Source: an uncultured Pseudomonadota bacterium (GTDB lineage: Bacteria; Vulcanimicrobiota; Vulcanimicrobiia; Eremiobacterales; Eremiobacteraceae). Taken from it: a stretch of 64,000 nucleotides of DNA. Each line of letters begins with the position of its first letter. Position 1 is the stretch's first letter. A model generated the notes under the pieces. That model did not search any database, was not told where the DNA came from, and saw only the letters and a program-made list of their open reading frames with translations. The position numbers and the translations under genes were made by a program. This document shows, piece by piece, positions 1,165-63,803 of the stretch. The stretch covers positions 896,001 to 960,000 of the forward strand of contig CAVTNB010000001.1 in the NCBI GenBank assembly GCA_963736005.1, given 5' to 3'.

Positions 1165-3140
1165 CGAGAACGCGCGGAAGGCTCGGACCCCGCGATCTCT
1201 ATTCGTTGCCAATCGTCGGATGGTGTGCGCTGCACCCACAGCGCACTTCCCTAGCGTATGTGGTCACTCGGCTTGATGAAGAAGCAAATGCGTATCGGGG
1301 CAGCGTTCGTCTCCTCTTGATCGATCCAGGGCGACTTGACAGTCGCCCACTACAATTTCGTGAAGATGCGAAGGTCTTAACGCCAGGAAACGCGCGCGAT
1401 CAAGCCCCGCAGTGGTCCGCCGACGGCAAGAAAATATTCTTTCTCAGCGATCGTGCCGGCACCACCCAGCTGTGGGCGATCGACCCTGACGGCGGTGACG
1501 CCACGGCATTACCCATCCTCCCCGGCAACGTTTCCGAATTTGCCGTTGCTCCAAATGGCTCGTACATTGCGGCGATCGCAACCCCCACCCAAAACAAGGA
1601 TGAGATCGAGCGACGCGGTTGGCGGCGCATCACGCGCCTGCGCTATCGGGCCGATGGGCCGGGCTACCTCGATGACAAACCGCAGATTTGGCTTTTTGAC
1701 CTTGCGGCTGAGTCAGCCAAACAAATAACAGATGGCTCCGGCTTTGTTGCAGGCGTCGCGTGGAATCCAAAGGGAACGAGCCTGGCTTTTTGCGGCGATC
1801 ACGAGGCTAGCGCAGACTCCCTTTGGCGCCGCGAGTTGTGGACAGCATCGGCGACCGACGATTGGCAGCCGCACGCAATCACACGGTTCGCGACGGCGAT
1901 CGAAGCGCCATCGTGGTCGCCGGACGGCAGGCGGATCGCGTTCTGCGGGATCGAAGAAGCGCATGGCGCTGGAGGCCTGCGTAACCTGCGCGTGTTCGTA
2001 GTGGATGCGACGGGGCGAAACCAGGCCTGCTGGACTCCACACGAAGAGTGGACGTGCGGCAATTTCATCTTGACCGACGTTGGCGCAGCAGGTAGCTTGG
2101 TGGCACCCGTTTGGGTATCAGACGGAGACGTCGCCGTGTTAGGCTCCTGTCGCGGCGCGGCGCAAGTTTTTCGAGTAAGCACTGGCAAGAGCGCGGTCGC
2201 ACTCACCCCCGCCACCATGTCGGTGACACACTTTGCTGACCTCGGCTCAGACGCGATCGTGCATTGCTCGTCCAATCAAGCGACACCACCTGAATTGTAC
2301 GTATCACGGGAAGGTAACGATGCCACGCGCCTCACTCGCGAAACTGAGGAGTGGAGTTCGCGTAGCTCGGTGGCGCCCGCGACGCACCTTACAGTAGCGA
2401 GCGCTGGGCGAGAGATCGACGCGTGGCACCAGAGCGGCATCGGTCCCACACCCCGCCCGTGTATCCTATACATTCACGGTGGCCCGCACTTTGCGTATGG
2501 CCACGCGTATGTCTTCCACTTTATCGCGCTGGCGGCTGCGGGATACGACGTCGTGTATTGCAATCCGCGCGGCAGTCAAAGTTATGGCGAAGGGTTTGCG
2601 ATGGCGATCGCGGGTAATTGGGCGCAGCTTGCTTTTGACGATTGTATGGCCGCGCTCGATGTCGCGCTCGGGCGCTTTCCAATTGACCATTCGCGGCTTG
2701 GTGTCGCCGGAGGAAGCTATGGCGGCTACTTGACCGCGTGGACGGTGGCACATACGAACCGCTTTGCGGCGGCAGTCGCGTTACGGCCAGCGACGAATTT
2801 AGTGAGCCTCTGGGGGACGTCCGAAGTGGGGAGGATGCTGGCCGAAGACTTTGGCGGCAGCCCATTTGAGGTACCGCAGGTCTACGCGAACGACTCGCCT
2901 CTCACCCACGCTGGCACGATCGCGACGCCGCTCTTGATCATCTTTGGAGAGCGCGACTACCGGACACCGGCCGAGCAGGCGGAGCAATTGCTCACCGCTC
3001 TGCTTGAGCGCGGAGTCACAGTTGAGGGCCTGCTCTTCCTGAACGCAGACCACAACCTTTCGCGTGGGGGACCACCGCGGCAGCGCATCGCTCACGAAGA
3101 GGCGATTTTGGAGTGGTTCGATCGCTTTTTGAAAAGGTAG
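1152..3140 (+). CDS. S9 family peptidase (acylaminoacyl-peptidase-like) with N-terminal beta-propeller
   Basis: IHGGP, NPRGS, GGSYGG nucleophile elbow, catalytic D and H; PxWSPDG repeats; start chosen at ATG 1152 (ORF opens 1137). Confidence 0.92.
   Translation: MADLARTRGRLGPRDLYSLPIVGWCALHPQRTSLAYVVTRLDEEANAYRGSVRLLLIDPGRLDSRPLQFREDAKVLTPGNARDQAPQWSADGKKIFFLSDRAGTTQLWAIDPDGGDATALPILPGNVSEFAVAPNGSYIAAIATPTQNKDEIERRGWRRITRLRYRADGPGYLDDKPQIWLFDLAAESAKQITDGSGFVAGVAWNPKGTSLAFCGDHEASADSLWRRELWTASATDDWQPHAITRFATAIEAPSWSPDGRRIAFCGIEEAHGAGGLRNLRVFVVDATGRNQACWTPHEEWTCGNFILTDVGAAGSLVAPVWVSDGDVAVLGSCRGAAQVFRVSTGKSAVALTPATMSVTHFADLGSDAIVHCSSNQATPPELYVSREGNDATRLTRETEEWSSRSSVAPATHLTVASAGREIDAWHQSGIGPTPRPCILYIHGGPHFAYGHAYVFHFIALAAAGYDVVYCNPRGSQSYGEGFAMAIAGNWAQLAFDDCMAALDVALGRFPIDHSRLGVAGGSYGGYLTAWTVAHTNRFAAAVALRPATNLVSLWGTSEVGRMLAEDFGGSPFEVPQVYANDSPLTHAGTIATPLLIIFGERDYRTPAEQAEQLLTALLERGVTVEGLLFLNADHNLSRGGPPRQRIAHEEAILEWFDRFLKR
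1329..1353 (-). repeat. REP class B, in-frame inside S9 peptidase
   Basis: gggcgacttgacagtcgcccactac; perfect 8-bp stem; GTAG on minus strand; encodes GRLDSRPL. Confidence 0.9.
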
Positions 3141-3164
3141 GTCCGCCGCCAAGTCGCCCGCTAC
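3137..3164. repeat. Degenerate REP remnants (half D, half B) between convergent stops
   Basis: taggtccgcc and agtcgcccgctac half-sites; ctac overlaps ribF stop. Confidence 0.6.
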
Positions 3165-4072
3165 AGGTCCGCTGCCAACTGAACGTCGCGGTGCATTTGC
3201 GCGACGAGTTCGTTCGATCCGGCGAAGCGTTGCTGTTCGCGCAAGAAATGCCAGCGCGAGAGGGTTAGCTGATCGCCGTAGATACTGCCCGAAAAATCGA
3301 CGATGTAGGTTTCGACGGTGAGCTCGCTCCCGCCGAATGTGGGCTTGTCACCAATGCTCGTGACCGATGCGTGTTGTTTGCCGCTCAGTTCGGCGGCGGT
3401 TGCGTACACACCAGATGGCGGAATGAGCTTATCAGCCGCGTGGTGCAAGTTTGCCGTGGGAAATCCGAGCTCATGGCCGCGGCCGGCACCAGTTGTTACC
3501 AGACCACGGACGCGATATGGGGAGCCCAGCAGCTCGTCGGCTTGGTCGAAACGCCTCTCCGAGATGAGCGATCGAATTCGAGAACTTGAAACCTTTTCTC
3601 CATCGCGTTCGAGGAGCGGCGCTGCGTTGAAGGCACATCCCTTTTCCGTCAGCACGCGCTCGGCAAGCGCGACGCCTCCCTCCCTTCCCTTACCGAAGCG
3701 CCACTCGGGCCCGACAGTAAGGGCGCGAGTGCGCAGCCGGTCGTAGAGAGTGTCCGTCAAAAACGTTTCCGCCGGAATGCTTGCAATCCGCTCGTCGAAA
3801 GGTAAAAGAAAGAGGACGTCAAGATCGCAGCCCGCTAGAAGGTTGATCTTCTCATCGAGCGTCGTGAGGCATTTGGGCGCTTGACCAGGTTGCAAAAATT
3901 CCTGCGGATGATGTTCGAAGGTCAAGGCGCCGGCCCTTGTGTTCTCCCTGCGCAGCCCAACGAGCTGCGAGAGCACCGCACGGTGGCCGATATGCACGCC
4001 ATCGAAGACGCCGATCGTGAGTAAGAGGTCGGCGTCTGCTTCATAGTCGTCGATGGAGCGGACGATGCGCAT
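3161..4072 (-). CDS. ribF: Bifunctional riboflavin kinase/FAD synthetase
   Basis: GVFDGVHIGH, VSSSRIR, LGFPTAN, KPTF motifs; follows truB. Confidence 0.97.
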   Translation of the reverse strand: MRIVRSIDDYEADADLLLTIGVFDGVHIGHRAVLSQLVGLRRENTRAGALTFEHHPQEFLQPGQAPKCLTTLDEKINLLAGCDLDVLFLLPFDERIASIPAETFLTDTLYDRLRTRALTVGPEWRFGKGREGGVALAERVLTEKGCAFNAAPLLERDGEKVSSSRIRSLISERRFDQADELLGSPYRVRGLVTTGAGRGHELGFPTANLHHAADKLIPPSGVYATAAELSGKQHASVTSIGDKPTFGGSELTVETYIVDFSGSIYGDQLTLSRWHFLREQQRFAGSNELVAQMHRDVQLAADL

Positions 4073-4111
4073 GGCGGCACCACAATTCGCGATGAGCGCT
4101 CGAGAGCCTTG

Positions 4112-5026
4112 TCACTGCGCCGCAAAGACTCGCATTGGCGCGAGGATGGTGAGAGCGTCACGCGTGAACACCACGCCGATGCCAATCAGCGCGCCTTGAT
4201 GGGTGACGAGTGCATTTTCGTTTGAGTTTGGGGCGATTTTCCAATCGCCCCCTACAGAGTTCAAAGGGAGGCGAACTTCGTTGCCGGCATTGAAGCGACG
4301 AGCACCAGCTTCGTCAAGCTCGACGCGCGGGTTGTGGAGCACGCTTAACGGATCGATCAGGCAGGCGCGAAAATCTGCGGCTATGCGCGACGGAACAACA
4401 CTTTCCCGCAGCGTAAATGGCCCAGACGCAACACGCAGCAACGAGCCCATCCTCGCTGGCAAACCTATATGTCGCCCGAGATCTTCGCACAAGACGCGCA
4501 CGTATGTGCCTGCGTCGCATTCGACGTACAGCCGGGCGCTCCGCGTCCCCAATGCGTCCGGAAGCACTTGGAGCTTGTAGAGTGTGGTTGCGCGCGGCGC
4601 GCGGGGAACGGTCTTGCCAGCGCGTGCGCTCCGATACAATGGCTTGCCCTCAACTTTTATCGCGGAGTGCATTGGGGGCAGTTGTGTTCCCGGTCCAAGG
4701 AGTGCCGCCGCCGCGTCTGGCAAACGTCGCTTCCAATCATCTGGAACCTGGGCGCGTGCAATAACCTGGCCGGCGCCGTCGCCCGAATCAGTTTGCTCTC
4801 CAACGATGAGTTCGAACACATACTGCTTGCGCGAGTCTGCGATCAGCGGAAACAAGCGAGTCGCTTTTCCGACGCCGAGGACGAGGACGCCGCAGGCCCT
4901 CGGATCGAGCGTACCCCAATGGCCAACGGCTGCTCCCCCGCAGGCGTGTTTCACCCAATTCCCAAACGCCGCAGAGCTGGGCCCGGGCGGTTTGAATGCG
5001 TTGATGAACCCGAAAGGAGCGCTCAA
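4112..5026 (-). CDS. truB: tRNA pseudouridine(55) synthase
   Basis: KPPG, GHWGTLDP, PPMHSAIK, GTYVR motifs; operon context. Confidence 0.95.
   Translation of the reverse strand: MSAPFGFINAFKPPGPSSAAFGNWVKHACGGAAVGHWGTLDPRACGVLVLGVGKATRLFPLIADSRKQYVFELIVGEQTDSGDGAGQVIARAQVPDDWKRRLPDAAAALLGPGTQLPPMHSAIKVEGKPLYRSARAGKTVPRAPRATTLYKLQVLPDALGTRSARLYVECDAGTYVRVLCEDLGRHIGLPARMGSLLRVASGPFTLRESVVPSRIAADFRACLIDPLSVLHNPRVELDEAGARRFNAGNEVRLPLNSVGGDWKIAPNSNENALVTHQGALIGIGVVFTRDALTILAPMRVFAAQ
4230..4255 (-). repeat. REP class A, in-frame inside truB
   Basis: ggggcgattttccaatcgccccctac; encodes VGGDWKIAP. Confidence 0.92.
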
Positions 5027-6039
5027 ACGCTGGAGCGTTCTGCCGCCATTTCCGCCCGCACGGCTTCAAGCATGCGCGCGAGCGCAGTTGCCAGGGGTCC
5101 AGTCAGCGTGGCACCAGCGGCCCGAAAGTGACCACCACCGCCGAGCGCTTTGCACGCTTCCATGACGTTGACGCGGCCTCTCGATCGCAGGCTGAGCCGG
5201 TAGCTGCCATCGGGTGATTCTTTGAGCAGGGCAGCGACTTCACAATGGTCGACTGCGCGCAGCGCGCCGACAACATCTTCGAGATCTTCATGCGTCGCGC
5301 CAAACTCTTCGAGCAGCGCTTGGCTGACCGATGAGTAGCAAATGCCGTCATCAGTAAGGACGAAGTCGTCGAGGACTCGGCCGAGGATCTTCTGTCCGCT
5401 GAAGCTGCGGGTTTGATAAAGCTGTTCTGTGATGAGGTCCTTGTTTGCGCCGACATCCATAAGCGCGGCTGCCAGACGCAGCGTGTTGGGGCTAGCGTTG
5501 CTGTACATAAAACAACCGGTGTCGGAAATGATCGCGGTGAGAAGGCAGGTAGCGATGTCTTGCGTGATCGGCTGGCCCAGCCCCGTAATGAGATTGAGGA
5601 CGAGGATGCCAGTGGCGGCTTCAGCTTCCAAGACGTAGTTCCAACGTCCGAAGCGTTTGTTGCCCAAGTGATGATCCACATTGATGATCTGCGTCTGTGG
5701 AACCCAGGTGAGCGCTTCTCCGGCGCGGGCCTGATCGCTCATATCCATGAAGATGTAGAGCGCGCCCTTGTCAACGCCATCGAAAGTTCGCTGCGTGAGG
5801 CCCGAGTCCGGAAGGAAACGCAGGTTTTTTGGCATCTCATCGTCGAGAAAATAGTGAACCTTCTTGCCCATCGCCCGCAGAGCGAGGCCGAGCGCGAAGC
5901 CGCTGCCCAAGACGTCGCCGTCGGGCTTCTCGTGAGCGCACATGACGAAATATTTGTGTTCGCGCAGGGCGGCGATCACCGCCTCCGCGTCTGATGCGGG
6001 CGACGGACGCCCGTTAACGCTGCTGGCCTTTGCGCTCAT
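5023..6039 (-). CDS. nrnA: DHH/DHHA1 phosphoesterase (NrnA-like)
   Basis: HEKPDGD, DHH, SDTG, SLRS, GGGH motifs; between rbfA and truB; start uncertain (ORF extends to 6060). Confidence 0.9.
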   Translation of the reverse strand: MSAKASSVNGRPSPASDAEAVIAALREHKYFVMCAHEKPDGDVLGSGFALGLALRAMGKKVHYFLDDEMPKNLRFLPDSGLTQRTFDGVDKGALYIFMDMSDQARAGEALTWVPQTQIINVDHHLGNKRFGRWNYVLEAEAATGILVLNLITGLGQPITQDIATCLLTAIISDTGCFMYSNASPNTLRLAAALMDVGANKDLITEQLYQTRSFSGQKILGRVLDDFVLTDDGICYSSVSQALLEEFGATHEDLEDVVGALRAVDHCEVAALLKESPDGSYRLSLRSRGRVNVMEACKALGGGGHFRAAGATLTGPLATALARMLEAVRAEMAAERSSV

Positions 6040-6412
6040 CCTGTTGTCGTACCTCATCAATCATGGTCGTCACTCGCACGCCGTGTTCGATGGATTTGTC
6101 GCGAACAAACGTCAGCGTCGGGGTGCGTCGCGTCTGCAGGCGCTTGCCCAGTTCGGTGCTCAAGAACCCGGCGGCGGACTGTAGCCCTTTCATGGTCTGG
6201 CGGGAGGCGCGCTCATCTCCCATGGGACTGGCGAACACGCGCGCGCTTCTCAAGTCTGGACTTACGTGCGCCCCGAGAAAGGTCACGAAACCGACCCGCG
6301 GATCTTTGAGCTGTTCGTGCACGATCTCGCTCAGCTCGCGCACGATTTCGTGCTCGATGCGCTGGAGCCGCTGACTCCTTCCTTCAGGCTGATGCTCTGA
6401 CACTGCCTTCAT
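6014..6412 (-). CDS. rbfA: Ribosome-binding factor A
   Basis: KDPR, VSPDLRSARVF, TPTLTF motifs. Confidence 0.95.
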   Translation of the reverse strand: MKAVSEHQPEGRSQRLQRIEHEIVRELSEIVHEQLKDPRVGFVTFLGAHVSPDLRSARVFASPMGDERASRQTMKGLQSAAGFLSTELGKRLQTRRTPTLTFVRDKSIEHGVRVTTMIDEVRQQDERKGQQR

Positions 6413-6939
6413 GAGGACGATTCATCGGAGTCGTCATCTTCCTCGAGCCACTGTCGCGCCGCTTCGTCCTTGACGTGGGAAAGAGCCCACTCGCGAACGG
6501 CATTGGCACGCTCTTCCTCCCCACACTCCACGAGCGCGTCAACCAGTTGCGAGGCAGTCATGGCCCAGCGTTCATCGGGGTCGTCCGCGCCTAAGAGGAC
6601 CGCGGCGCACAAATGCGAGACCGCTGCAGCCCACTGACTTAAATTTGCATAGGCTGCGCCGAGATCGGCGTGCAGTCCGGCCGAGGCTGGGTATGCTTCA
6701 ACGCCGGTGCGCAGCAAGTGCTCTTCTCGCTCGTCATTGCCGAGTTCCAAGCAAAGCGACGCCATGAGCTGGATGCCTTCGGGTCCAAGGTCGCCCGCCG
6801 ACTCCACCGGCTCGAGCAATTGGAGCGCGCGGCGCAACTCGGAACGCTGTTCAGGCGTCCAGGGCTCATCGCCATCGCCATGTGCAACGATGACGTTGAA
6901 ATAGATTTCGTGGGCTTGATCGACGACGTCGCGGTCCAT
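6409..6939 (-). CDS. TPR-like helical hypothetical protein
   Basis: YPASAGLHADLGAAYANL TPR-like segment; stop overlaps rbfA start. Confidence 0.7.
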   Translation of the reverse strand: MDRDVVDQAHEIYFNVIVAHGDGDEPWTPEQRSELRRALQLLEPVESAGDLGPEGIQLMASLCLELGNDEREEHLLRTGVEAYPASAGLHADLGAAYANLSQWAAAVSHLCAAVLLGADDPDERWAMTASQLVDALVECGEEERANAVREWALSHVKDEAARQWLEEDDDSDESSS

Positions 6940-6944
6940 AAAAA

Positions 6945-9527
6945 TTACGGGGTGACTTGTTCCATCGCGTAGGCTTCGATGACGTCGCCCTGTTTGATGT
7001 CGTTAAAGTTTTCGATCGCCATGCCGCACTCATACCCTTCCGTCACTTCGCGTACGTCGTCTTTGAAGCGTTTCAGAGAAGCTAGTTTTCCTTCGTAGAC
7101 GATGGCGCTGTCGCGCAGCACTCGAACGCCGGCATCTCGGGTGATCTTGCCGCTCTTGACGTAGCAGCCGGCGATGGTGCCGATCTTGCTGACTTTGAAG
7201 ATCTGACGCACTTCGGCTTGACCCAGCACGACCTCGCGCTCTTGCGGCTTGAGCATGCCGGTCATGGCTGCTTTGACCTCATCGATGGCATTGTAGATGA
7301 CGTCGTAGAGGCGAATGTCCACACCTTCCGCTTCTGCCTTCCGAGCGATCGTTGCGTCGGGTCGGATATTGAAGCCTATGATGATGGCGTTGGACGCGCT
7401 CGCGAGCATGACGTCGGACTCGTTAATGCCGCCCACGCCCGTATGGATGACGCGCGTGCGCACTTCGTCGTTGACCAGACCGTCGAGCTGCGAGCGCAGA
7501 GCTTCGGCTGAGCCTTGCGCATCGGCTTTGATGATCAAGTTGAGCTCTTTGAGTCCGCCCTCTTTGGCTTGCGCCAAGAAGCCATCGAGCGTCACCGTGC
7601 GACGCGTTGTGGCCATGCGCTGTTCGCGCTTGCGCTGGCTGCGCTTAGCAGCAAGCTCGCGCGCGTCGCGTTCATCGGAGACCACTTCGAGGATGTCGCC
7701 CGCTGATGGCACGTCGGACAAGCCCATGATTTCTGCTGGAATCGACGGCCCCGCGCGTTTGATTGGCTCGAGTTTGTCATCGAACATGGCGCGCACGCGA
7801 CCCCAGGCCGAACCCACGACCACGACATCGCCGTTGCGCAGCGTGCCGTTCTTGACGAGGACGGTGGCAACCGGACCACGCGACCGGTCCAGAAGTGCTT
7901 CAATGATCACGGCTTGCGCGCGGCGGTTCTTATTCGCCCGCAGCTCCAGCAAATCGGCATTGAGCAACACCATCTCGAGCAGTTCGTCAAGGCCGGTCTT
8001 CTGTTTGGCGGAGACCGGGATAAACTGCGTCTGACCGCCCCAATCTTCTGGCGTCAGTCCTAGGTCGGAGAGCTGTTGCTTCACGCGGTCGACATTGGCG
8101 TTTGGTTTGTCGACCTTGTTCACGGCCACGACGATGGGCACGCCAGCTGCACGCGCGTGATTCATGGCTTCAATGGTTTGCGGCATGACGCCGTCGTCTG
8201 CAGCAACCACCAAGATGGCGACGTCGGTGACTTTGGCACCACGCGCGCGCATTTCGGTAAACGCTTCGTGACCAGGCGTATCGATGAAAGTGATCTTGCG
8301 ATCGCCGTACTCGACCGTGTACGCACCGATGCGCTGTGTGATACCCCCAGCTTCGCCGGCAGCAACCTTCGTTGAGCGAATGGCGTCGAGGAGCGAGGTC
8401 TTCCCATGGTCGACGTGGCCAAGCACGGTGACAACCGGCGGCCGTGGCGTGAGCGAGCCGGCCGGGTCTGTATCGGCGACGATCTCAGGTGGCTCTTCGC
8501 CCGCTTCCTTAATAATGATGTTGAAACCAAAGCGGCGCGCGACTTGCGACGCAACATCGGAGGAGATGTGCTGGTTGATTGTGGCCATCGTCCCCATCTT
8601 GATGAGTTGGGCGATGACTGCGCCAGCCTGTGTCTCCATTGCGGCCGCAAGCTGCTGAACCGTGACGAGATCTGGGATCTCAAGGTCTTTGAGAACAGCC
8701 GGCTCGGCAACTGGAGCTGCCGTTGATGCTTTGTGGCGACGTTCTGTCTTCTTAAGAAGCTCCTCGCGCTCGCGTTCCTTGCGATCGCGCTCTTGATCTT
8801 CGCGGCGCTTGCGGCTAGAAGCCGGCGTGCTGGGCGGAAGCGACGGAGCCAGTGGACCTCCGCCGAGTGGACGTCCGGGCATGGGGCGTCCTGGCATCGG
8901 TCTTCCAGGCATGGGTCTGCCGGGAAGCGGTCGACCTGGCAGCGGTCGCCCAGGCAGGCCTTCGCGGCGGATGGCCGGACGAAGCGGGCCGCCAACCGGC
9001 GGTCGCGGCGCGCTGCCGAGTGGGCGCTGCATTGGGTGTTCGGCCGGCGTGGGCCCAACGGCTTGCGGCCTTGCGGCTACCGGTGCAGGCGTCGATGGTG
9101 ATGCGGAAGCAGCCGGCACAACTCTATGAGGAGCGGCCGGGCGACTGGGGCGCATGGTGGCTGGAACGGGTTTGAGTTGCGGTTCGGCGGGTGCTTGCGA
9201 TGGAACAACTGCGCTAGGCGCCGTCGCAGTGGCAACTGGAGGAAGCGCGGCGGCCTCAGCCTTAGCGGAAGCCTTAGGCTTTTCGATAGGCTTCTCCGCC
9301 GCGACCGGCGCCCCATTGCCTGCGGTTTGCTTCGCGGTTGGCTTGTGGGTCTTCGCGGCCTTGGCGAGATTGCCGAGCAACACGCCCTTGACGATTTGCG
9401 CTCGATGTTCGTCGATGATGGACATGTGCGTCGTCGCACGTATGCCGACTTTGCTCAGCAGCGCGATCGTCTCTTTGCTCGATAGCTTGAGCTCTTTCGC
9501 GAGCTCATGGACTCGTACGGTTGACAT
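6945..9527 (-). CDS. infB: Translation initiation factor IF-2
   Basis: [35 protein letters not shown]. Confidence 0.99.
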
Positions 9528-9538
9528 TTTCTCCTATT

Positions 9539-9614
9539 GGGCGACTTGAAGGTCGCTCGTAGTTGGGGCGATTTTCCAATCGCCCCCCAACATTTTTGGC
9601 GATTTCCAATCGCC
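9539..9614 (-). repeat. REP cluster (B-like + A + shortened A)
   Basis: gggcgacttgaaggtcgctc 9539-9558; ggggcgattttccaatcgcccc 9565-9586; ggcgatttccaatcgcc 9598-9614. Confidence 0.85.
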
Positions 9615-9616
9615 GG

Positions 9617-9859
9617 TTATAGTTTTCGGGCCTCCCAGGGAGCTTCGCTTGCAACGCCGCTCAGTGCCCTGTATCGCTTGTTCTTCGACACGCGTGTTCC
9701 ACACTCCGGTGAACACAGGTATGCCCCCCGGCCGCTTTTGCGCCCGCTCGCGTCCACGCTCCACCCGGTGCTGTCGTGGACGAAGCGCATGAGCCGAAAC
9801 TTTTCGGCTCGAGTCTTGCACGCCACGCATTGCCGGGTGGGCACATGACCTTTGTTCAC
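9617..9859 (-). CDS. ylxR: YlxR/DUF448 RNA-binding protein
   Basis: PTRQCVAC, GRGAYLC; between nusA and infB. Confidence 0.9.
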   Translation of the reverse strand: MNKGHVPTRQCVACKTRAEKFRLMRFVHDSTGWSVDASGRKSGRGAYLCSPECGTRVSKNKRYRALSGVASEAPWEARKL

Positions 9860-9864
9860 CTTGC

Positions 9865-11208
9865 CTAGTTCCCCGCACCAGTCCTGTCGCTGTCCTCCTC
9901 GGCTACGGGTTCGTCCTCGCCGTCATCTGTTACGCGCTGCAACTCTTGCAACTTGCGGATGAGATCTTCGTCCTGCGCGAGCATTTCTGGGGTGAGCTCG
10001 ACGCCAGTCTGCTCGGCGGCAATTTCCGCCATGGCCGCAACTTGCTCGTCATCTTTTTCCTCTTCGACGCGCTGCTCGACGACCTGCGTCCATTGCTCTT
10101 CGCTATGGATGTCGATGCGCCAGCCGGTCAGCTTCGCGGCAAGTCGCACGTTTTGCCCTTCCTTGCCAATGGCCAGCGATAATTGGTGCTCGGGCACGAC
10201 GGCTTCTGCGAGGTGCTCGCGCTCGTTGAGATGGACCGAGACAACTTTTGCGGGCTGCAAGGCATTGGCGACGTAGGTTGCAGTATCTGCCGACCATTGG
10301 ATGACGTCTATTTTTTCGCCGTGGAGTTCCTCGCTGATGTTGTTCACGCGAGAACTACGCGGACCGAGGCACGCGCCCACGGCGTCAATATCCTCTTCAT
10401 TCGTCCAGACCGAAACTTTGGAGCGAGATCCGGCCTCGCGCGCGACATCTTTGATTTCGACCAGACCTTGATCGACTTCCGGAATTTCCTGCTCGAAGAG
10501 ACGACGCACGAGATTTGCGTGGCTGCGAGAGAGAATGACTTGCGGGCCCTTGTTTGTCTTGCGAACCTCCATGACGTAGACGCGAATGCGCGAGCCGATG
10601 CGAAATGATTCGCGCGGGACTTGCTCCGAGAGCGGCAAGATGGCTTCCGCCTTGTCGAGATCGATGAACATGTTTCGCTGCTCGTAGCGCTGCACCGTTC
10701 CGGTGATGAGGCGATCCAACTTCTCGTTGAATTCGTCGAACACCACGTCGCGCTCGGCCTCGCGGATGCGCTGCACGATGACTTGCTTGGCCGTCTGTGC
10801 AGCAATGCGCCCGAATTCTTTGGGCGTGACTTCGATGTCGTAGTTATCCCCGATCTTGTATTTGCCGCCTGCGTCGGCGACGCTAAGCTCGAGAACCGGA
10901 TCGGTCACTCCTTCGACGACTGCGCGCCGGGCAAAAACGCGATAGGATCCGTCGTTGCGATCGACGATGACAACTGGATTGCCGACGGCCTCGGCTTCGC
11001 GCACGAAGTTTCGCTTGTAGGCAGAAACGAGCGCAGCTTCGAGGGCCTCGAGCAATGTGTCGGCGGGCAAATTCCGGTCGCGCTCCAGTTCTTTGAGCGC
11101 TTCGATCAGTTCCGGATTGGGCTTTGCAGGTGCGACTGCAGAGGACCCATTGCCGCCAGCGGCTGATTTCTTCAATGTTTTTCGGGGCGCCATTATCGCT
11201 TCTTCCAT
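9865..11208 (-). CDS. nusA: Transcription termination/antitermination factor NusA
   Basis: [34 protein letters not shown]. Confidence 0.98.
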
Positions 11209-11221
11209 CCATTAAGACTGC

Positions 11222-11248
11222 AAAAGGAGTGGGCGACCCACTCCTTTT
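11222..11248 (-). terminator. Leader hairpin/attenuator upstream of nusA
   Basis: Perfect inverted repeat aaaaggagtggg-cga-cccactcctttt, ending in U4 on the minus strand. Confidence 0.75.
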
Positions 11249-11263
11249 CAGGATATCAGTGAC

Positions 11264-11292
11264 ATTTTACCAGATGGAGTTCCAACGTGCAA
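11264..11292 (-). promoter_or_regulatory. Sigma70-type promoter for nusA
   Basis: TTGCAC - 17 bp - TAAAAT with extended -10 TG on minus strand. Confidence 0.7.
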
Positions 11293-11383
11293 GGGGTTCG
11301 AGAAGCTTATTTGAGCTGGAATGTGAGCCCTAGAACAAGTGCTAGGGTACAGGCTCGGATTATGGTCATGTGCGGTATCTCCC

Positions 11384-11408
11384 CGCGCGAGTAAACTCGC
11401 GCGACTAC
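11384..11408 (-). repeat. REP class C after rimP stop
   Basis: cgcgcgagtaaactcgcgcgactac, compensatory G-C pair relative to other C copies. Confidence 0.88.
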
Positions 11409-11422
11409 ATGAGCATCCTTTG

Positions 11423-11923
11423 TCATGACGTTTTGCGTCTGAGGTCGTCGCGTGGGTCATACACGAGGTTGGCGCGCTTAATCGCCGCGTACGGAATGAG
11501 GGTTACTCCCGCATATTTGTCATTGATCGTGACCATGTCGTCGTCAGCTTGCTCGATCTCGCCTGTGAACTCCGTTCGATTCTTAATGCGTAGCGTCGTA
11601 ATCACATTGATCAGTCTACCTCGAAATCGGCGGTAGTGCTCCGGTCGGAGCAGTGGTCGGGCGAGCCCGGCGGAAGCGACTTCGAGCGAAAAAAGAGGAA
11701 CGGGCGGCGGAAGCTCTTCGATGCGACGTTCAATGTAGCGCGACACAGCTTCGCAGAGGTTCGAATCTACCCCGCTTTCGCGATCGATCATGATGCTCAC
11801 GTGGAAAGTGCGATGCTCTTTGTGGACGACGCATTTGAGGACCTCGACATCGTAGAATTGGGGCACGCTCGTTAAACGCCCACAAAGCTCCTCGATCCTT
11901 TGTTGCATGGATACATTGATCAT
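11423..11923 (-). CDS. rimP: Ribosome maturation factor RimP
   Basis: IDRESGV..NLCEAVSR, LEVASAGLARPL. Confidence 0.9.
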   Translation of the reverse strand: MINVSMQQRIEELCGRLTSVPQFYDVEVLKCVVHKEHRTFHVSIMIDRESGVDSNLCEAVSRYIERRIEELPPPVPLFSLEVASAGLARPLLRPEHYRRFRGRLINVITTLRIKNRTEFTGEIEQADDDMVTINDKYAGVTLIPYAAIKRANLVYDPRDDLRRKTS

Positions 11924-14384: not shown

Positions 14385-16178
14385 ATGAGCGATTTACATT
14401 TCTCACCACGGCCCAACCGCGCGGCCGAAATCAACTGGCAGCCATGGGGCGAGACCGCGTTCGAGAGCGCGAAGGCGCAGGGCAAGCCCGTCTTGCTGGC
14501 CATTTCTGCCGTGTGGTGCCATTGGTGCCACGTCATGGATGAGACGAGCTACTCGGATGGAGCGGTCATCCAGACGATCAACGAGCGATTCATCCCGGTG
14601 CGCGTCGACAACGACCAGCGTCCCGACGTGAATGCTCGGTACAACATGGGTGGCTGGCCAACCACTGCGCTCCTCACGCCGGACGGCGAAGTGCTGTATG
14701 GCGGCACGTATATTCCCCCCGATGCAATGCGCCAAGTGCTCGCGCACGTGGACCGCTTTTATACGGATCCCAGCAATCGTTTGACCGTTGCCCAAAAGGT
14801 GAGCGAGATGAAGGCTGCTCGAGCGGGCCGTGCGCGCGCGCCTGAGGGCGGAGAGCTCGATCCGCAAACGGCGGCGAAGGTTCTGGCGCTGCTCTCCTCA
14901 GCCTTCGATGAGGAATACGGCGGATTCGGCACCGATCAGAAATTTCCGCACGTCCCGGCACTGCAGTTCCTTCTCGATTTTTACGCGCGAGAGCACAACG
15001 AGCGCGCCAAGACGATCGTCGAGCGAACTCTTCACGCGATGGCCGGCGGCGGCATGTACGATCATGTCGAGGGCGGCTTCTTCCGGTACTCAACCACGCC
15101 CGACTTTTCCGTGCCGCACTTCGAAAAAATGCTCGAAGACCTTGGGGGCTTGCTGCTCGTGTGCGCGCGGGCGAGCACGCTCTTCGAAGATGCCTCGCTT
15201 GGAGCAGTCGCTATAGACGTCAAACGTTACATGGATGCGCGTCTTTGGAACGATGAGGCCGGGGGTTATGGCGGTTCGCAGGACGCCGATGAAAAGTACT
15301 TCGAGTTAGATGCGCAGGGCCGCGCAGCGCTTCCCGCGCCATATGTGGACAAGACGTTGTATGCATCTTGGAATGCGCAGGCTGCGCGATCGCTGATCTT
15401 GGGTGCGCCGCTGGCGCAGTTCGCAGGAGCGGACGTCAATGAGTGGACGCAGCGGGGCCTTGCGATCCTCGAGACGCTGTGGAATCGCCTGCTCGATCGC
15501 GGCTTGATGTGCCGTTATTTTGACGGCAGCGGCGCTCACATTCGGGGGCTGCTCGTCGACCAAGTTTGGTGCGCTTGGGCGGCGCTCGCGGCATTTTCCG
15601 CAACCGGTGAGGTGCGCTGGCTGGATCGCGCCGGCGATTTGATCGGGCACTCCGATGCTCTCTACGACGCAGATGCGCACGTCTATCTCGATCGCTTGAA
15701 GGGCCCCGATGACGCCGGGCGACTGGCCGAGCAAACAGTATCCGTCGAAGAAAACGCACTGATGGCCCGCGCACTACTCGATTTTGCATCCTTGAGCGGC
15801 AAGTCTGTCTATGCAGAACGAGGCCAGGCAATATTGCGCCATTACGCCAGAGACTATCAGGCGCAGAATATTTTTGCGGCCGGATATGCGAGCGCGGTGC
15901 TCGACGCCCTCGAGCCTCCGATTGATGTAAACATCGTTGGCTCAGTGCGGGATCCCGTGGCCGTTGCGTTGCGTGACGCGGCGTTGAGAATTGCGTCACC
16001 CCCATTGCGCCCAAATCCCATCGACCCGGGTGCGGAACCGCAGCGCGCATCTTCTCTCGGTTACGACGCCGCAGGCATCACTGGCTACTTGTGCCGGGGA
16101 AAGATGTGCTTCGCGCGCGTTACTTCACCAGACGAATTAAAAGCCGCCCTGACATCAAATCCGGTCTCGTCCACCTAG
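14385..16178 (+). CDS. DUF255 thioredoxin-domain protein (YyaL/SSP411 family)
   Basis: WCHWCHVM, GGWPT, GGFFRYS, PHFEKML. Confidence 0.93.
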   Translation: MSDLHFSPRPNRAAEINWQPWGETAFESAKAQGKPVLLAISAVWCHWCHVMDETSYSDGAVIQTINERFIPVRVDNDQRPDVNARYNMGGWPTTALLTPDGEVLYGGTYIPPDAMRQVLAHVDRFYTDPSNRLTVAQKVSEMKAARAGRARAPEGGELDPQTAAKVLALLSSAFDEEYGGFGTDQKFPHVPALQFLLDFYAREHNERAKTIVERTLHAMAGGGMYDHVEGGFFRYSTTPDFSVPHFEKMLEDLGGLLLVCARASTLFEDASLGAVAIDVKRYMDARLWNDEAGGYGGSQDADEKYFELDAQGRAALPAPYVDKTLYASWNAQAARSLILGAPLAQFAGADVNEWTQRGLAILETLWNRLLDRGLMCRYFDGSGAHIRGLLVDQVWCAWAALAAFSATGEVRWLDRAGDLIGHSDALYDADAHVYLDRLKGPDDAGRLAEQTVSVEENALMARALLDFASLSGKSVYAERGQAILRHYARDYQAQNIFAAGYASAVLDALEPPIDVNIVGSVRDPVAVALRDAALRIASPPLRPNPIDPGAEPQRASSLGYDAAGITGYLCRGKMCFARVTSPDELKAALTSNPVSST

Positions 16179-16233
16179 GGGCGACTATCAAATCGCCCCA
16201 AGGTTCGGTAGGGGGCGATTGGAAAATCTCCCC
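16178..16233 (+). repeat. Two REPs at the 3' flank of RAYT (A/B hybrid and A)
   Basis: gggcgactatcaaatcgccc 16179-16198; gtagggggcgattggaaaatctcccc 16208-16233. Confidence 0.88.
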
Positions 16234-16737: not shown

Positions 16738-16800
16738 GGGGCGATTTGCCAATCGCCCCCTACATAGATCTAGGGGCGATTTGCCAATCGCCCCCTACAT
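16738..16800 (-). repeat. Tandem pair of class A REPs at the 5' flank of RAYT
   Basis: ggggcgatttgccaatcgccccctacat identical at 16738-16765 and 16773-16800. Confidence 0.93.
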
Positions 16801-46314: not shown

Positions 46315-46319
46315 GGTAG

Positions 46320-46352: not shown

Positions 46353-46370
46353 GGGGGACGGGCCCGTGGC

Positions 46371-46399
46371 AGGCGGGCGATTTTGCAATCGCCGCCTAC
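46371..46399 (-). repeat. REP class A variant
   Basis: aggcgggcgattttgcaatcgccgcctac. Confidence 0.78.
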
Positions 46400-47485: not shown

Positions 47486-47667
47486 AGTTTTACTAACCCT
47501 TTCTCATGGACTTTTCATTCGCCGATTGTGTCAGCGGCATGCCGTCTTGGCATGCAGGTCCTTAAGGGTTAGGATACGATTCCGCCGGGTGGCGTGCATG
47601 AGGTGAAACTGAGGACACTATGAGATTTTGCCCAGATTTTGTCTGGGGCGCGAATTGATTCGAGACC

Positions 47668-49798: not shown

Positions 49799-49823
49799 AG
49801 CGAACCTGAAGGTCCGCTGCTTC
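49799..49823 (-). repeat. Degenerate REP class D
   Basis: agcgaacctgaaggtccgctgcttc. Confidence 0.7.
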
Positions 49824-51041: not shown

Positions 51042-51068
51042 GGGGCGATTTGCGAATCGCCCCCCTAC
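51042..51068 (-). repeat. REP class A
   Basis: ggggcgatttgcgaatcgcccccctac, 5 nt after upstream stop. Confidence 0.88.
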
Positions 51069-54535: not shown

Positions 54536-56626
54536 TTACCAGTCAAACGCCTGGATTGCGGCCCAAGCATCGGGCCGAGTGCCGGCCCAGTCGAAGAAAG
54601 TTTCACCGATCGCACCGACAGACTTTGCACCGCCCAGCGACCATAGGATTTCTCGTCCGGATGGCGCTCCCGTGCCTTCCAGATCGACGCTTTGGCCCGC
54701 GACATCAACAGGGATGTCTCGTCCAGCTAGTTCGCGCGTGCGCGCTACGGCGCCGACGGCAGCTCCCGCCACTTCGCTGCGCGCGTACTCGTGGTGAACC
54801 GCCTCATCGAAATAATGCCAGTACTCCATGGGTTGCAGCACGTCGGCATATCTGGCGATGCGTGCGTAGGGGTAATCATCGTTCGTAAAGCCCATTCGCG
54901 GAGAAGCGACGGTGGCCACGATGAGGTAGTGCGGGCCGGCAGCCAAGCGGACGTCGCGAATATATTCGACCATGCTTTCGCGAGCGCTTGATCCGTCGCC
55001 CATATAATTGTCGCCGGTTTCGAGATCGAGCGCCAAGCCTTCGAAGCCGTTGCCACTTGGGGTCGTATAGGCCGCCGCGGCAATCGTCTCCGCGAGGTCC
55101 TGCGTGGAGGCCCGGCGCGGTACGGTCCATGCAAGGAGCTTGATATTCGCAGCCGTTGCCGAGTCAATCAGCCGATCGAGCCACGCGTGTGCTTCTTCGG
55201 TCTGAGCCATCGTGCACGCTCCGCGAGCCATGCGCAGTTCGATCACGTGAATGCCTGCGCGTTGTGCCTCAGCAACGACATCAGCGGGATCGTAGTGGTG
55301 AAAGTTTCGTGGATCGCCTACTAAAGAGGAGAAATAAAGAAACATCCCTTTGCCGCCAACATCGCTCGCGGCTGCTCCAGACAGCGCCGCAGGGGTGTTG
55401 ATAGCGGGCGTACTCGCCTGAATGGATTCGTTCGTCGTCTCCGCCACAACGGTATATCGGTAGTGCGAATCTGGAGCAACGTCTGTGTCGTGGAGCGTGT
55501 GCTCCGAGGCAGGCAGAGTCGCGATGAGAGCGGGTCGTTCGCCCTCATCGGTCGAGCGGAAAACTTCGTAACCGCTGACGTCCGCTGCTGCAGCCAATGG
55601 GGTCCAACCCACGTTGACGAGGTGTGGCCCGACCGGAGCTGCCGTGGCGTCGAACGCCTCGGCGCTCGCGTCAGGCGCCTCCAAGGTCTTCGTGAGCGTT
55701 TGATCTGGTGAAGAGATCGTAACGATCACGGGGCGCGCCCAGCCGATGGTCACCGTCGCCGCATCGCTCGCAACCGATGAGTGCTCGAGTTCGATCAATT
55801 GTCCGGTCGAGGTTGAAAAGGTCACATCACTCATCGATGCCGGGGCGTGCACGACGGCGACCCACGTGCCATCCGGGCTGATGGTCCACGGAGAGGAGGG
55901 CTGCTTCGCGACCACTGCTGGCATCGTGGATTGCGGCGGCGCAGCGTGCTTCGCTGACAGCGGTTTTTGTGGCGGCGAGCTGACGCCGAACACGGCTTCC
56001 AAAACGGAGGCGACGAAACGGCTGGTCACGATTGGTTTCGTCGAACGTGGTCGCGAATAAATTCGCGACACTACATTTGGGGTTAGGGGTCGCGAATAAA
56101 TTCGCGACACTACATTTGGCGGTCGCGAAGAAATTCGCGACACTACATGTGGTGGTCGCGAATATATTTGCAATGCGACGGTTGGTTTTGGTAGTCGCGA
56201 ATAAATTCGCGACACTACATTTGGGGTCAGCGGTCGCGAATAAATTCGCGACACTACATGTGGGTGGGCGTGATTGGCAATCGCGAATGTCTTGGCGGTC
56301 CGTTGCTCCAAAAAGTTCGAGCTCATCGCCACAAACAAGGGTAGGAGGAAGGCGATCGCGATCGTCCCCAAGATCGCTCGCGATAATGGCGCAGACGGCT
56401 CCGGCTTAGGAATCTCGACATATTCTTGTCGACGGCGCTGGAGCGTCGATGATGAGAGACCGTTCGATCGAAGCCTGCCTCGAGCGGCAGCCAGTCGCGA
56501 ATTTTCAAGCCGCCGGCGGCGGTCGACGGCTTCAAAAAGTTGGGCGTATTTCTGCTGGCGCTTCTTGAGCGCGTTCAACCGAAGCGTCTTCTTGCGCTGG
56601 CTACCGGATTGCGCTCGCTTGGTCAT
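54536..56626 (-). CDS. Membrane-anchored protein: TM + REP-derived repeat linker + FN3 + glycoside-hydrolase-like barrel
   Basis: TM AILGTIAIAFLLPLFVAM; GYEVFRS..DTDV..YRYTV FN3; LALDLE, QPMEYW; start uncertain (ORF extends to 56674). Confidence 0.75.
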   Translation of the reverse strand: MTKRAQSGSQRKKTLRLNALKKRQQKYAQLFEAVDRRRRLENSRLAAARGRLRSNGLSSSTLQRRRQEYVEIPKPEPSAPLSRAILGTIAIAFLLPLFVAMSSNFLEQRTAKTFAIANHAHPHVVSRIYSRPLTPNVVSRIYSRLPKPTVALQIYSRPPHVVSRISSRPPNVVSRIYSRPLTPNVVSRIYSRPRSTKPIVTSRFVASVLEAVFGVSSPPQKPLSAKHAAPPQSTMPAVVAKQPSSPWTISPDGTWVAVVHAPASMSDVTFSTSTGQLIELEHSSVASDAATVTIGWARPVIVTISSPDQTLTKTLEAPDASAEAFDATAAPVGPHLVNVGWTPLAAAADVSGYEVFRSTDEGERPALIATLPASEHTLHDTDVAPDSHYRYTVVAETTNESIQASTPAINTPAALSGAAASDVGGKGMFLYFSSLVGDPRNFHHYDPADVVAEAQRAGIHVIELRMARGACTMAQTEEAHAWLDRLIDSATAANIKLLAWTVPRRASTQDLAETIAAAAYTTPSGNGFEGLALDLETGDNYMGDGSSARESMVEYIRDVRLAAGPHYLIVATVASPRMGFTNDDYPYARIARYADVLQPMEYWHYFDEAVHHEYARSEVAGAAVGAVARTRELAGRDIPVDVAGQSVDLEGTGAPSGREILWSLGGAKSVGAIGETFFDWAGTRPDAWAAIQAFDW
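56050..56259 (-). repeat. Six-unit class C REP array inside a CDS
   Basis: gtcgcgaataaattcgcgacactacat-type units at 56050, 56089, 56122, 56155 (degenerate), 56194, 56233. Confidence 0.93.
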
Positions 56627-56942
56627 ATGTGCAACGGCCGCTTTAGAAACGAGAGAAAAAACTCGGCCGCACACGAGGCGCTGCCGGTTACTCTCTTTTC
56701 ATCGGCGGTAGCGCGGGGCGGGTGCAGTCGAACCGGAGGGCTTTATGTTAGAGGGCCACAGTTAAAGGTAGCGTGGGTGTTTCCTATTGACGACGCCCCG
56801 TAAGTGAGCACGCTCATAACGCGCAGGTCCACCAGGGTAAGGATTGGGCAAAGCGACGAGGGAGATTAACGGTCGATAAAAGCCGCACGCCTGGGACTTC
56901 TCTGGGAATGAATCGAGCGCAGGGCGCGTATACTATAGTGAT

Positions 56943-60362: not shown

Positions 60363-60387
60363 GGGCGACGTTGCCGTCGCCCGCTAC
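60363..60387 (-). repeat. REP class B variant
   Basis: gggcgacgttgccgtcgcccgctac with compensatory G-C pair. Confidence 0.85.
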
Positions 60388-61614: not shown

Positions 61615-61716
61615 GGGTACAATGATACCTCTACACACAAGACTTAGGCTTGAGGCGTTTGTGACAGATTCAGGGCACGAAAGTGCCCTCGCGCTAGTGA
61701 GGCGGACCCTACAACG

Positions 61717-61740
61717 GCGGACCTAAAGGGTCGCTGCTAC
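61717..61740 (-). repeat. REP class D (slightly degenerate)
   Basis: gcggacctaaagggtcgctgctac. Confidence 0.75.
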
Positions 61741-62723: not shown

Positions 62724-63709
62724 TCGATAGACGGGGTGTGATGACCAATATCGGAGCACCCAGAGTGCGCCTCACCCTCGCGTATGCTGGACTCCTCGTT
62801 CTGCTGCTCGCCACGTTCTCGATCATCGTGTACGTGCTGTTGTCCATTGTCGTCCTCCAAGACATCGAGCCATTCCGAGACGATGCGGGGATCGTGGCGG
62901 CGGCGCATCGCATGCTGGAAGTGTACGTGGTGCGCTTGCTTATCGCGAATGCAGTCGGTCTCGTGCTTGTCGTGGCGATCGCCGCCTTTCTCGCGAAGAT
63001 CACGCTGCGGCCACTCGAACGCGCGATCGCGCTCCAACGCCAATTTACAAACGACGCCTCCCACGACCTACGTACTCCCCTCGCTGTCATCCGTACCGAA
63101 GCATCTGTCGGGCTCACCGATACGGCGCTCGGAACGGACTATGTGGAGCGGCTCCGCATCATTGACGAGCAGGCGCAGCGCATGCAGCGTTTGATCGACC
63201 AACTTATCACCCTATCGCATCTTGATGCAGATAGCGCGCTCGATCGCGAACCGACCGACCTTCGAGTCGTGGTGAACGGTGTCGTGCGAGATCTTGGCCC
63301 GCTCGCGGAGGCGCGCTCCGTCGATTTAAAGGTCTGCCGCAGCGAAAGTGCCGTCGTGATGGGCGACGAACTCAAGCTTTCGCAGCTGGTCGGCAATCTT
63401 ATCGATAACGCCATCAAACATGGTCGCGAACAATCGACCGTCGACATCTCCGTCTGGCAGAACCGCGACACCGCATACGTCGCGATCAGCGACGAAGGCC
63501 ACGGCATTGCCCCAACGGACCTCGAGCGGATTTTCGAGCGCTATCAGCGGGTCAATGGATCGGCGAGCAACGGCGTCAACGAAGTTCACGGTCTTGGTCT
63601 GCCCCTGTGCCGCTGGATCGCGCGCGCGCACGGCGGTGAGGTCTCAGTACAGAGCGCACTTGGACAGGGCAGCACATTTACGGTCCGCCTTCCGGCGATG
63701 ACCGCCTAA
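62720..63709 (+). CDS. Sensor histidine kinase
   Basis: Two TMs; SHDLRTPL, NLIDNA, DEGHG, GLGL. Confidence 0.95.
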   Translation: MIDRRGVMTNIGAPRVRLTLAYAGLLVLLLATFSIIVYVLLSIVVLQDIEPFRDDAGIVAAAHRMLEVYVVRLLIANAVGLVLVVAIAAFLAKITLRPLERAIALQRQFTNDASHDLRTPLAVIRTEASVGLTDTALGTDYVERLRIIDEQAQRMQRLIDQLITLSHLDADSALDREPTDLRVVVNGVVRDLGPLAEARSVDLKVCRSESAVVMGDELKLSQLVGNLIDNAIKHGREQSTVDISVWQNRDTAYVAISDEGHGIAPTDLERIFERYQRVNGSASNGVNEVHGLGLPLCRWIARAHGGEVSVQSALGQGSTFTVRLPAMTA

Positions 63710-63711
63710 AT

Positions 63712-63803
63712 GTAGCGGCGGACCTTTAGGTCCGCCTGTAGCAGGCGATGTGAGCGTGGCGACGTCAGTCGCCCATGTAGGGGGGCGATTGGAAAATCGC
63801 CCC
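63712..63803 (+). repeat. Mixed REP cluster D + B-like + A
   Basis: gtagcggcggacctttaggtccgcc 63712-63736; ggcgacgtcagtcgcc 63758-63773; gtaggggggcgattggaaaatcgcccc 63777-63803. Confidence 0.9.

Follow-up and report, generated by a model that had tools for sequence, protein, structure and literature searches.

The window analysed here, a 64,000-nt stretch of the source assembly (G000:C1:896001-960000; the assembly, termed G000, comprises 2.84 Mb and is 84% complete), carries one gene for a REP-associated tyrosine transposase (RAYT) among numerous short hairpins which belong to the repetitive extragenic palindromes (REPs). The gene, R1 (16233-16694, minus strand), encodes a protein of 153 aa with the HuH motif H66-L-H68 and a catalytic Y126 within YILANP; it matched NCBIfam model NF047646 with 104.6 bits (cut-off 80) as well as PF01797. 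Upstream, on the same strand, lie two class A REPs (16739-16763 and 16774-16798, spanning 16739-16798) in a 35-nt tandem, and downstream, on the plus strand, two inverted REPs (16175-16232), one of class A (16208-16232) and the other a degenerate A/B hybrid (16175-16199) whose left arm and loop are B-like and whose right arm is A-like. The initial annotation of this DNA had rightly recognized a REP/RAYT system, describing more than 30 hairpins of four sequence classes, A to D, plus a variant of C (C'), around a single RAYT. All these classes are present in the window with the sequences it gave; taking as a copy each hairpin within 4 mismatches of a class consensus, we counted 33, the A/B hybrid not included, and a descriptor scan for perfect GTAG-N-8bp-4nt-8bp hairpins recovered 20. 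Rfam revealed no match at gathering score in the window.

Genome-wide, the perfect pattern occurred 431 times in G000, compared to 0, 1, and 0 times in three order-4 Markov simulations of a length equal to the genome, and other spacers or loops after GTAG were scarce (spacer 0, n = 7; spacer 2, n = 8; loop 3, n = 3; loop 5, n = 6), confirming the enrichment of one geometry. GTAG was the tetramer at spacer 1 in 431 of 1262 strand-hits of perfect 8/4 hairpins, the runner-up reaching 16, which identifies these elements as GTAG-type REPs. Including imperfect copies, the genome holds 776 REPs (A 159, B 114, C 182, C' 113, and D 208; chance expectation 0-1), of which 58 out of 703 lie inside called genes, where in-gene counts and all gene-relative positions rest on a simple gene finder; the elements are thus high in copy number and mostly extragenic. 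Where both sides of a stem pair have changed, 96 of 106 cases are Watson-Crick pairs again, against an expectation of about 5; the cases are cells and not independent events.

One feature of the geometry proposed initially, a foot followed by an unpaired spacer, an 8-bp stem, and a 4-nt loop, had to be corrected. Distance and loop are indeed fixed in all classes, but in class A the “spacer” G pairs with the following C in 107 of 143 copies, forming a 9-bp stem with no unpaired spacer. The invariant is, therefore, the 9 nt between GTAG and the 4-nt loop rather than an unpaired spacer plus 8-bp stem: 485 GTAG-hairpins display this combination genome-wide, and any other of the 66 distance/loop cells contains at most 17. 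The loop reads [G/T][G/T]N-A, being GG-N-A in class A, GT-N-A in class B, and TT-N-A in classes C and D. Its position 4 is A in 619 of 634 copies; within each class, position 3 is free and the other three are fixed. The folding energies of the two strands showed no asymmetry, differing by at most 0.7 kcal/mol.

A PF01797 search of G000 uncovered three genes, R1, R2 (C1:1990580-1991029), and R3 (C3:137816-138274), pairwise 44-46% identical, and Pfam, tblastn, and six-frame hidden Markov model searches of the 84% complete assembly detected no fourth RAYT. All three passed the cut-off of NF047646 (REP-associated tyrosine transposase), with the IS200 model staying below its cut-off; H66, H68, Y126, N130, and P131 are invariant among them, giving the HuH and Y---NP signatures, and a profile of the three matched PDB 4ER8, the E. 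coli TnpA-REP, with an E-value of 2.4e-13. The REPs next to R1 are of class A, those next to R2 of C and C', and those next to R3 of D, in each case with direct copies upstream and inverted copies downstream, so that all three are REPtrons with inverted cognate REPs, a single-copy gene, and synteny with the congener G003. The lone RAYT described initially holds true inside the window and is an effect of it, because R2 and R3 lie elsewhere in the assembly, flanked by their own classes; the alternative raised at the same time, that several paralogs share a scaffold, is supported. Judged by their flanks, R1 is the predicted enzyme of class A, R2 of C and C', and R3 of D. An IS200/IS605 insertion sequence was ruled out, since the copies are so divergent in sequence and sit at fixed loci. 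Downstream of R3, a head-to-tail array of about eight class D copies with a 41-nt period was observed (C3:137400-137816).

Of the close NusA homologs that bear a name, most are Eremiobacteraeota or Eremiobacteraceae, one is Acidoferrales, and one Binatus; we accordingly assign the soil bacterium hosting this system to Eremiobacterota, probably Eremiobacteraceae. Members of this RAYT clade were found in 16 of 31 other genomes of the host's family (one of them, G013, unpublished) and, in a class-wide sample, in 13 of 21 host-family genomes and 0 of 129 genomes of two other families. In a careful tree of 32 rows, the host-family RAYTs are monophyletic (support 99/98) and fall into three orthogroups (100/100, 98/97, and 100/98), each retaining its REP type. 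The orthologs of R1, R2, and R3 in G003, being 60, 71, and 62% identical, occupy the same loci and carry A/B-, C-, and D-type REPs, respectively. Around the R1 ortholog, A copies stand together with copies combining a B stem with an A loop, which links classes A and B. A tree including Pseudomonas and E. coli references displayed long branches and yielded no placement of the clade. Beyond the genus, REP geometry is not fixed: in a set of 180 homologs, including some duplicate loci, 73 of the 180 loci had at least two similar flanking hairpins, 24 of them with the 9/4 geometry, 23 with 8/5, and the others with 9/3, 8/6, 7/6, 8/4, 10/4, or 10/3. A related RAYT clade (L030, L040, L041, L044, L049, L054, L144, L161, L165, and L166), from Acidobacteriota where named, shows one near-invariant REP with 8 bp and a 5-nt loop across many genomes, contrasting with the fast class turnover in the host lineage. 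At another locus (L011, genome G018), the RAYT has one internal TAG stop while its flanking REPs are intact, possibly a recent pseudogene.

The sister species G002 (83% complete; 89% identical to G000 over the aligned part) retains R1. Its R3 site is empty, and R2 has been replaced by another gene located between two C-type REPs, with a 3' remnant of the RAYT left. The replacing segment, on C5 between lon and a 6-phosphogluconolactonase-like gene (L127:2782-4281 and L130:1-1520), consists of about 2 kb with a long open reading frame (ORF) between two inverted C REPs; judged by its motifs, this ORF may encode a flavin adenine dinucleotide (FAD)-dependent monooxygenase. Perfect-pattern counts for A/B/C/D are 89/59/163/105 in G000 and 193/44/60/17 in G002. 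Class A has thus doubled in G002, and class D is about six-fold lower and more decayed (5/25 perfect compared to 26/64 in G000). A site comparison of this one genome pair, covering 800 kb of G002 (~28%) and not polarised into gains and losses, revealed perfect-copy sites unique to G000 (A 4, B 11, C 16, and D 13) and to G002 (A 23, B 8, C 5, and D 1). Grouped as A+B versus C+D, the ratios are 15:29 and 31:6 (Fisher p = 6e-6). Fewer C and D and more A copies in G002 are the pattern expected of class-specific enzymes.

An opposing explanation holds that R1 is one structure-reading RAYT that mobilises all four classes, the geometry serving as its recognition signal. That neither the distance from GTAG to the loop nor the length of the loop differs between the classes would fit this idea, as would the persistence of class B with R1 as the only close candidate, and E. 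coli TnpA-REP cuts REPs of another species with few features in common (PMC8266576). However, C and D have REPtrons of their own, the classes are kept in the congener's orthogroups, and the copy numbers in G002, from which R1 alone was recovered, have changed as described; we regard this explanation as very improbable. The initial annotation, in offering this version, had also stated that it would fail if R1 cut only class A and the remaining classes each had their own RAYT, and by this measure one enzyme for four classes is largely refuted. What survives concerns class B, which has no flanked RAYT, so that R1 may serve A and B.

Concerning arrangement, the 776 copies comprise 320 singlets, 344 direct, and 112 inverted copies. 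Perfect copies account for 148/320 singlets (46%) and 40/112 inverted copies (36%; p = 0.06), and hidden or decayed inverted partners near 210 near-perfect singlets were not in excess over background. The inverted doublet (REPIN) is, accordingly, neither the dominant nor the best conserved form. In 85 of 703 copies the REP supplies the TAG stop codon of a gene, and 50 more begin 1-2 nt past a stop. Between tandem genes, 280 copies are sense and 100 antisense, and copies are enriched between convergent genes. REP orientation tracks gene orientation, and the GC skew is so flat that a replication-strand bias would not show. A mere capture of native TG-TAG gene ends was rejected as the sole route: xTG precedes TAG in 125 of 782 genes, compared to 69 of 1657 for TAA and TGA together, which means that copies mostly bring their own foot.

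The location at gene ends, the mostly sense orientation, and the enrichment between convergent genes would also be compatible with a geometry maintained by a host function, either 3'-end RNA hairpins or a host DNA-binding protein, instead of enzymes. However, the geometry changes from host to host along with the position in the RAYT tree (9/4, 8/5, 9/3, 8/6, and others) and varies within the host family, and an RNA hairpin needs no fixed distance between GTAG and loop. We consider such an origin unlikely, though host selection may still decide where copies survive. As for the ends of the unit, class A singlets are followed by C and then A or T in 39 of 52 cases and preceded by C-T before GTAG in 18 of 52, which is suggestive at most; C and D singlets showed no such flanking dinucleotide pattern. 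A single-gap fit of 63 indels gave variable ends, many of them within tandem arrays. Additional related contigs, mostly breaking at REPs, contained no clean empty allele.

In our opinion, these elements likely constitute a multi-REPtron REP/RAYT system, in which three class-specific paralogs act on an inherited scaffold and single hairpins spread and stack at gene ends. The three paralogs, which stayed at fixed loci, would descend from a single ancestral RAYT whose clade was encountered here in no family but that of the host, each being a putative HUH tyrosine nuclease binding its own class of single-stranded hairpin: R1 would serve A and probably B, R2 would serve C and C', and R3 would serve D. 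From the common features, we infer a scaffold that was inherited from the common ancestral enzyme and would be kept by all classes, consisting of GTAG, 9 nt, a [G/T][G/T]N-A loop, and a perfect stem of 8-9 bp. Specificity is probably carried by the stem sequence together with loop positions 1-2; since C and D share a loop, the stem must separate these two. Binding of single-stranded DNA, reading of the loop, and GTAG-guided cleavage by R1-R3 are predicted by analogy with the biochemistry of group 3 TnpA-REP (PMC8266576). What spreads would be one hairpin at a time, together with a few bases next to it, instead of an inverted pair, and copies would gather at gene 3' ends, with GTAG often furnishing the stop codon. 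Local head-to-tail duplication would add further copies, and new ones would often land beside resident REPs of other classes, where a subsequent deletion from one GTAG repeat to another, or an outright overwriting, would leave another class at the same site in the sister species.

Several points weigh against the multi-REPtron reading. The difference in conservation between singlets and inverted copies is not significant, and the two ends of single-REP indels revealed no shared cut dinucleotide. The enzyme loss was compared in one pair of genomes, with presence and absence not polarised into insertion and deletion, and both assemblies are about 83-84% complete, so that a fourth RAYT, or a relocated R2 or R3 in G002, could lie in the missing part. 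Furthermore, class B does not track the expansion of A (unique perfect sites of 4 versus 23 for A and 11 versus 8 for B in G000 and G002, respectively; p = 0.004), which argues against a simple equal use of both classes by R1. As B turns over in both genomes with no flanked enzyme, it is either a poorer substrate of R1 or depends on a fourth gene that both assemblies lack.

That class B depends, or until recently depended, on a fourth RAYT of its own, lost or located in the unassembled part, is a serious candidate explanation, even if we lean slightly against it. Class B is as homogeneous as A (62/114 and 88/159 perfect copies in G000), its turnover does not track that of A, the assembly is 84% complete, and B differs from A at loop position 2, which is the position most strictly read in REP-Mb (PMC8266576). 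On the other hand, no B-flanked RAYT occurred among the 23 family loci examined or in L111, the R1 ortholog of G003 carries both A copies and B-stem/A-loop copies, a B-like degenerate copy flanks R1 itself, and the A/B pattern fits the published “orthoswitch” (PMC3686654). Under the multi-REPtron reading, B would belong to the A lineage and the window's R1 may serve both, because B, with no flanked RAYT in either sister species, keeps turning over.

REPs of different classes frequently stand side by side. Direct neighbours number 186, with 62 cross-family and 29 A-B cases among them. Cross-family direct pairs start no more than 28 nt apart in 37 of 69 cases, compared to 8 of 85 same-class pairs, and the downstream copy shows a damaged GTAG in 34 of 69 cross pairs compared to 93 of 354 isolated copies. 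In 28 cross pairs only the 5' foot is intact and in 7 only the 3' foot (p = 5e-4). Of 174 colinear REP sites in G000 and G002, 117 are occupied in both genomes and 57 in one only, and class content differs at 59 of those 117. Complete swaps number 25, among them 19 with a gain of A in G002 and 1 in the reverse direction. A strict flank-anchored test, in which 28 of 70 rows stayed unclassified, returned 9 in-register class changes at GTAG (5 cross-family, all to A) next to 16 same-class cases; examples in the window are 26619-26643 (C versus A) and 30712-30736 (D versus A). In several indels, a newcomer copy takes over the foot of the resident. At a further site (G000 C1 ~1294825), the order is B-A in G000 and A-B in G002, which looks like two separate additions of A, one to each side of a common B copy.

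These neighbourhoods would be accounted for if donors were class-specific and targets class-blind, each RAYT copying only its own hairpin and docking on any GTAG-9-4 hairpin as acceptor, which would turn the common geometry into common landing pads, an idea that adds to the multi-REPtron reading without replacing it and that we regard as possible, though tentative. The abutment of cross-family pairs, the mostly downstream position of the damaged foot, the class differences at half of the shared sites [59/117], the predominance of gains of A in the genome with R1 alone, and the in-register changes all point in this direction. Moreover, integration into REP-carrying targets has been proposed for E. 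coli (PMC3333891), which would explain the stacking if other classes can act as targets. However, all classes prefer the same narrow zone at stop codons, deletion from GTAG to GTAG in an old tandem yields an in-register swap with no cross-recognition, a damaged downstream foot may indicate an older copy (hairpin mismatches 0.57 versus 0.32), and some empty alleles have neither GTAG nor REP. Co-occupancy of intergenic gaps is weak as a proof of targeting, the 77 observed exceeding only slightly what a length-weighted null yields (mean 61, and at most 78 over 1000 draws). In its full form, with a single 25-nt hairpin as the replicating unit, a function for the shared geometry, each RAYT copying only its own class and landing on any resident GTAG-9-4 hairpin while often taking its foot, and fixed gene-end slots being refilled by whichever enzyme is active so that classes compete, the scheme seems rather doubtful to us.

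Several RAYTs with separate REP classes on one scaffold are already known from Pseudomonas and Stenotrophomonas. In Pseudomonas, strains have 2-3 RAYTs, each with its own class and a genus-wide geometry, and orphan classes arise via orthoswitch or loss (PMC3686654); that the REPs of a RAYT clade have their geometry in common has been described before (PMC3686654, PMC6006769). The present system resembles group 3 (subclass 2.5) of Pseudomonas fluorescens and Stenotrophomonas in its 2-3 monophyletic RAYTs with their own REP classes and in the short perfect stems (PMC3686654, PMC2817692, PMC3116915), as well as in REP numbers depending on the cognate RAYT, orphan classes, and some hybrid clusters. 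Protein length (~150 aa), the missing C-terminal tail, and short perfect REPs also match, and foot, spacer, and stem add up to 13 nt here, while in subclass 2.5 foot plus stem keep within a narrow range of 10-13 nt, and TTTA and TTCA are among the loops listed (PMC6006769). With regard to the group 3 motifs (DH[LF]H / WQ / YI[VI]ANP), R1 is nearest (DHLH, WQ, YILANP) and R3 farthest (WM, E for D). In contrast to those systems, the host probably belongs to a different phylum, the RAYTs have an identity of only 31-33% with one Pseudomonas RAYT, and most copies are singlets or stand head-to-tail, with singlets no more decayed than the rest, whereas the REPs there are mostly found as REPINs (61% of REPs in doublets in P. 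fluorescens, with decayed singlets; PMC3116915).

Group 3 enzymes read loop positions and require a perfect stem, with GTAG guiding cleavage at CT or CA (PMC8266576). Selection in vitro on the REP-Mb loop TTTA left position 3 free but not positions 1, 2, and 4 (PMC8266576), which is the pattern of the present loops. Marinomonas REPtron Mb and Stenotrophomonas REPtron Sm share with our classes C and D a short perfect stem, a GTAG foot, and a TT-N-A tetraloop fixed at positions 1, 2, and 4. Unlike R1-R3, which are known from sequence alone, those enzymes have been assayed; the Mb stem has 5 bp and lies two bases from GTAG, and the loops of A and B (GG-N-A and GT-N-A) are not among the natural substrates assayed according to the accessible text (PMC8266576). 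E. coli TnpA-REP (RayT, 4ER8), with its bacterial interspersed mosaic elements (BIMEs), also belongs to the HUH Y1 family and has a GTAG foot, and this one enzyme serves the REP variants y, z1, and z2, a possible parallel to A and B (PMC3333891). In comparison, our RAYTs are 22-24% identical to it, show no C-terminal extension, and are accompanied by perfect short instead of long bulged stems, with no alternating REP/iREP arrays.

The GTAG families of Di Nocera et al. likewise include several families per genome, repeat-specific REPtrons, head-tail dimers, singlet-rich families, hybrid dimers, and TAG as stop codon (PMC3733652), and hybrid BIMEs have been reported (PMC2817692). Mixed-class neighbours are far more common here, making up 91 of 186 direct pairs including A-B, compared to about 10% hybrid dimers in S. 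maltophilia (PMC3733652). The accessible part of bioRxiv 10.1101/2021.07.10.451892 contains nothing on site swaps. In a literature search that left subscription papers mostly, and most supplements, outside, we found no report of REPs in Eremiobacterota or Vulcanimicrobi- and none of class replacement at orthologous sites. We therefore see a variant of a known REP/RAYT system whose less usual aspects are the host phylum, single and head-to-tail copies instead of REPIN pairs, abutting cross-class neighbours, and the class change at orthologous sites, and which offers a testable lead, namely that a REP, whatever its class, may be a landing site. How RAYTs spread REPs is still unsettled in the cited literature. 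Three paralogous enzymes with substrates identical in shape and different in sequence provide a ready matrix for a specificity code, and a sister species without two of these enzymes offers many filled, empty, and swapped sites. Should singlets be the mobile unit and resident REPs targets across classes, a model centred on REPINs would lose its generality, and the choice of targets could be tested directly.

Apart from those around R1, the REPs of the window are distributed as follows, all on the minus strand unless noted. A perfect class B copy at 1329-1353 has a class A copy at the G002 orthologous site, and a perfect class A copy at 4231-4255 is missing there. An ordinary rimP-nusA-infB-rbfA-DHH-truB-ribF operon (3161-11866) carries REPs at or near several junctions; a class A copy with damaged foot (9566-9590) lies between the nusA-side genes and infB, and a class C copy with a compensatory pair (A-T to G-C) at 11384-11408. 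The class C copy at 20431-20455 is represented by class A in G002.

Two tandem Met-zincin paralogs (DUF5118/DUF5117/DUF4953; 23976-29261) both end with ATG-TAG within a class C REP, followed by a decayed class B. The TAG of the class C copy at 23955-23979 is the stop codon of the gene at 23976-26579, with the decayed B copy arranged head-to-tail at 23926-23950 (whole cluster 23926-23979), and G002 shows class A behind the same stop. Similarly, the TAG of the class C copy at 26619-26643 terminates the gene at 26640-29261, and this copy abuts class B at 26595-26619 (26595-26643); in G002, class A stands in register behind the same GTAG. A mixed inverted pair at 30678-30736 is composed of class C on the plus strand (30678-30702) and class D on the minus strand (30712-30736), the TAG of the latter ending an ORF at 30733; in register with the D foot, the G002 site carries class A. 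The intact C copy is preceded by an array of class C half-hairpins (30602-30677, plus strand), with foot and left arm but no right arm, at 18-30 nt spacing; it resembles repeated truncated duplications, and G002 has only one truncated copy.

Perfect class B copies are located at 32631-32655, absent in G002, and at 36459-36483, where G002 has an additional class A immediately 5', and a perfect class A copy lies at 35956-35980 on the plus strand. They are followed by a decayed class B copy (42031-42055), a direct cluster of B (46256-46280), B (46290-46314), and A (46375-46399) spanning 46256-46399, a decayed C' copy (47647-47671), a class D copy with damaged foot (49799-49823), and a class A copy with an extra G (51042-51068). 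Five C' copies, head-to-tail and 33-72 nt apart, occupy 56050-56257. This array falls in a 712-aa open frame (54536-56674, minus strand), where the gene finder starts the gene at 56029, after the array; the shorter product starting there had no Pfam match. A REP with class B stem, a compensatory pair (T-A to G-C), and a GCAA loop is found at 60363-60387 and a class D copy with two mismatches at 61716-61740. On the plus strand (63712-63803), a class D copy with a G-C outer pair (63712-63736) directly follows a stop codon and precedes a class A copy with an extra G (63777-63803); the G002 site is class C'. The compensatory pairs at 11384, at 60363, and between 63712 and 30712, as well as the extra G in two class A copies, agree with their initial description.

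Outside the window, class D-like REPs at G000 C1 ~1021584 and ~1024511 lie inside what is apparently one long coding region with a Walker A motif, presumably helicase-like. In G002, this coding region contains an extra 33-nt insertion that keeps the frame.

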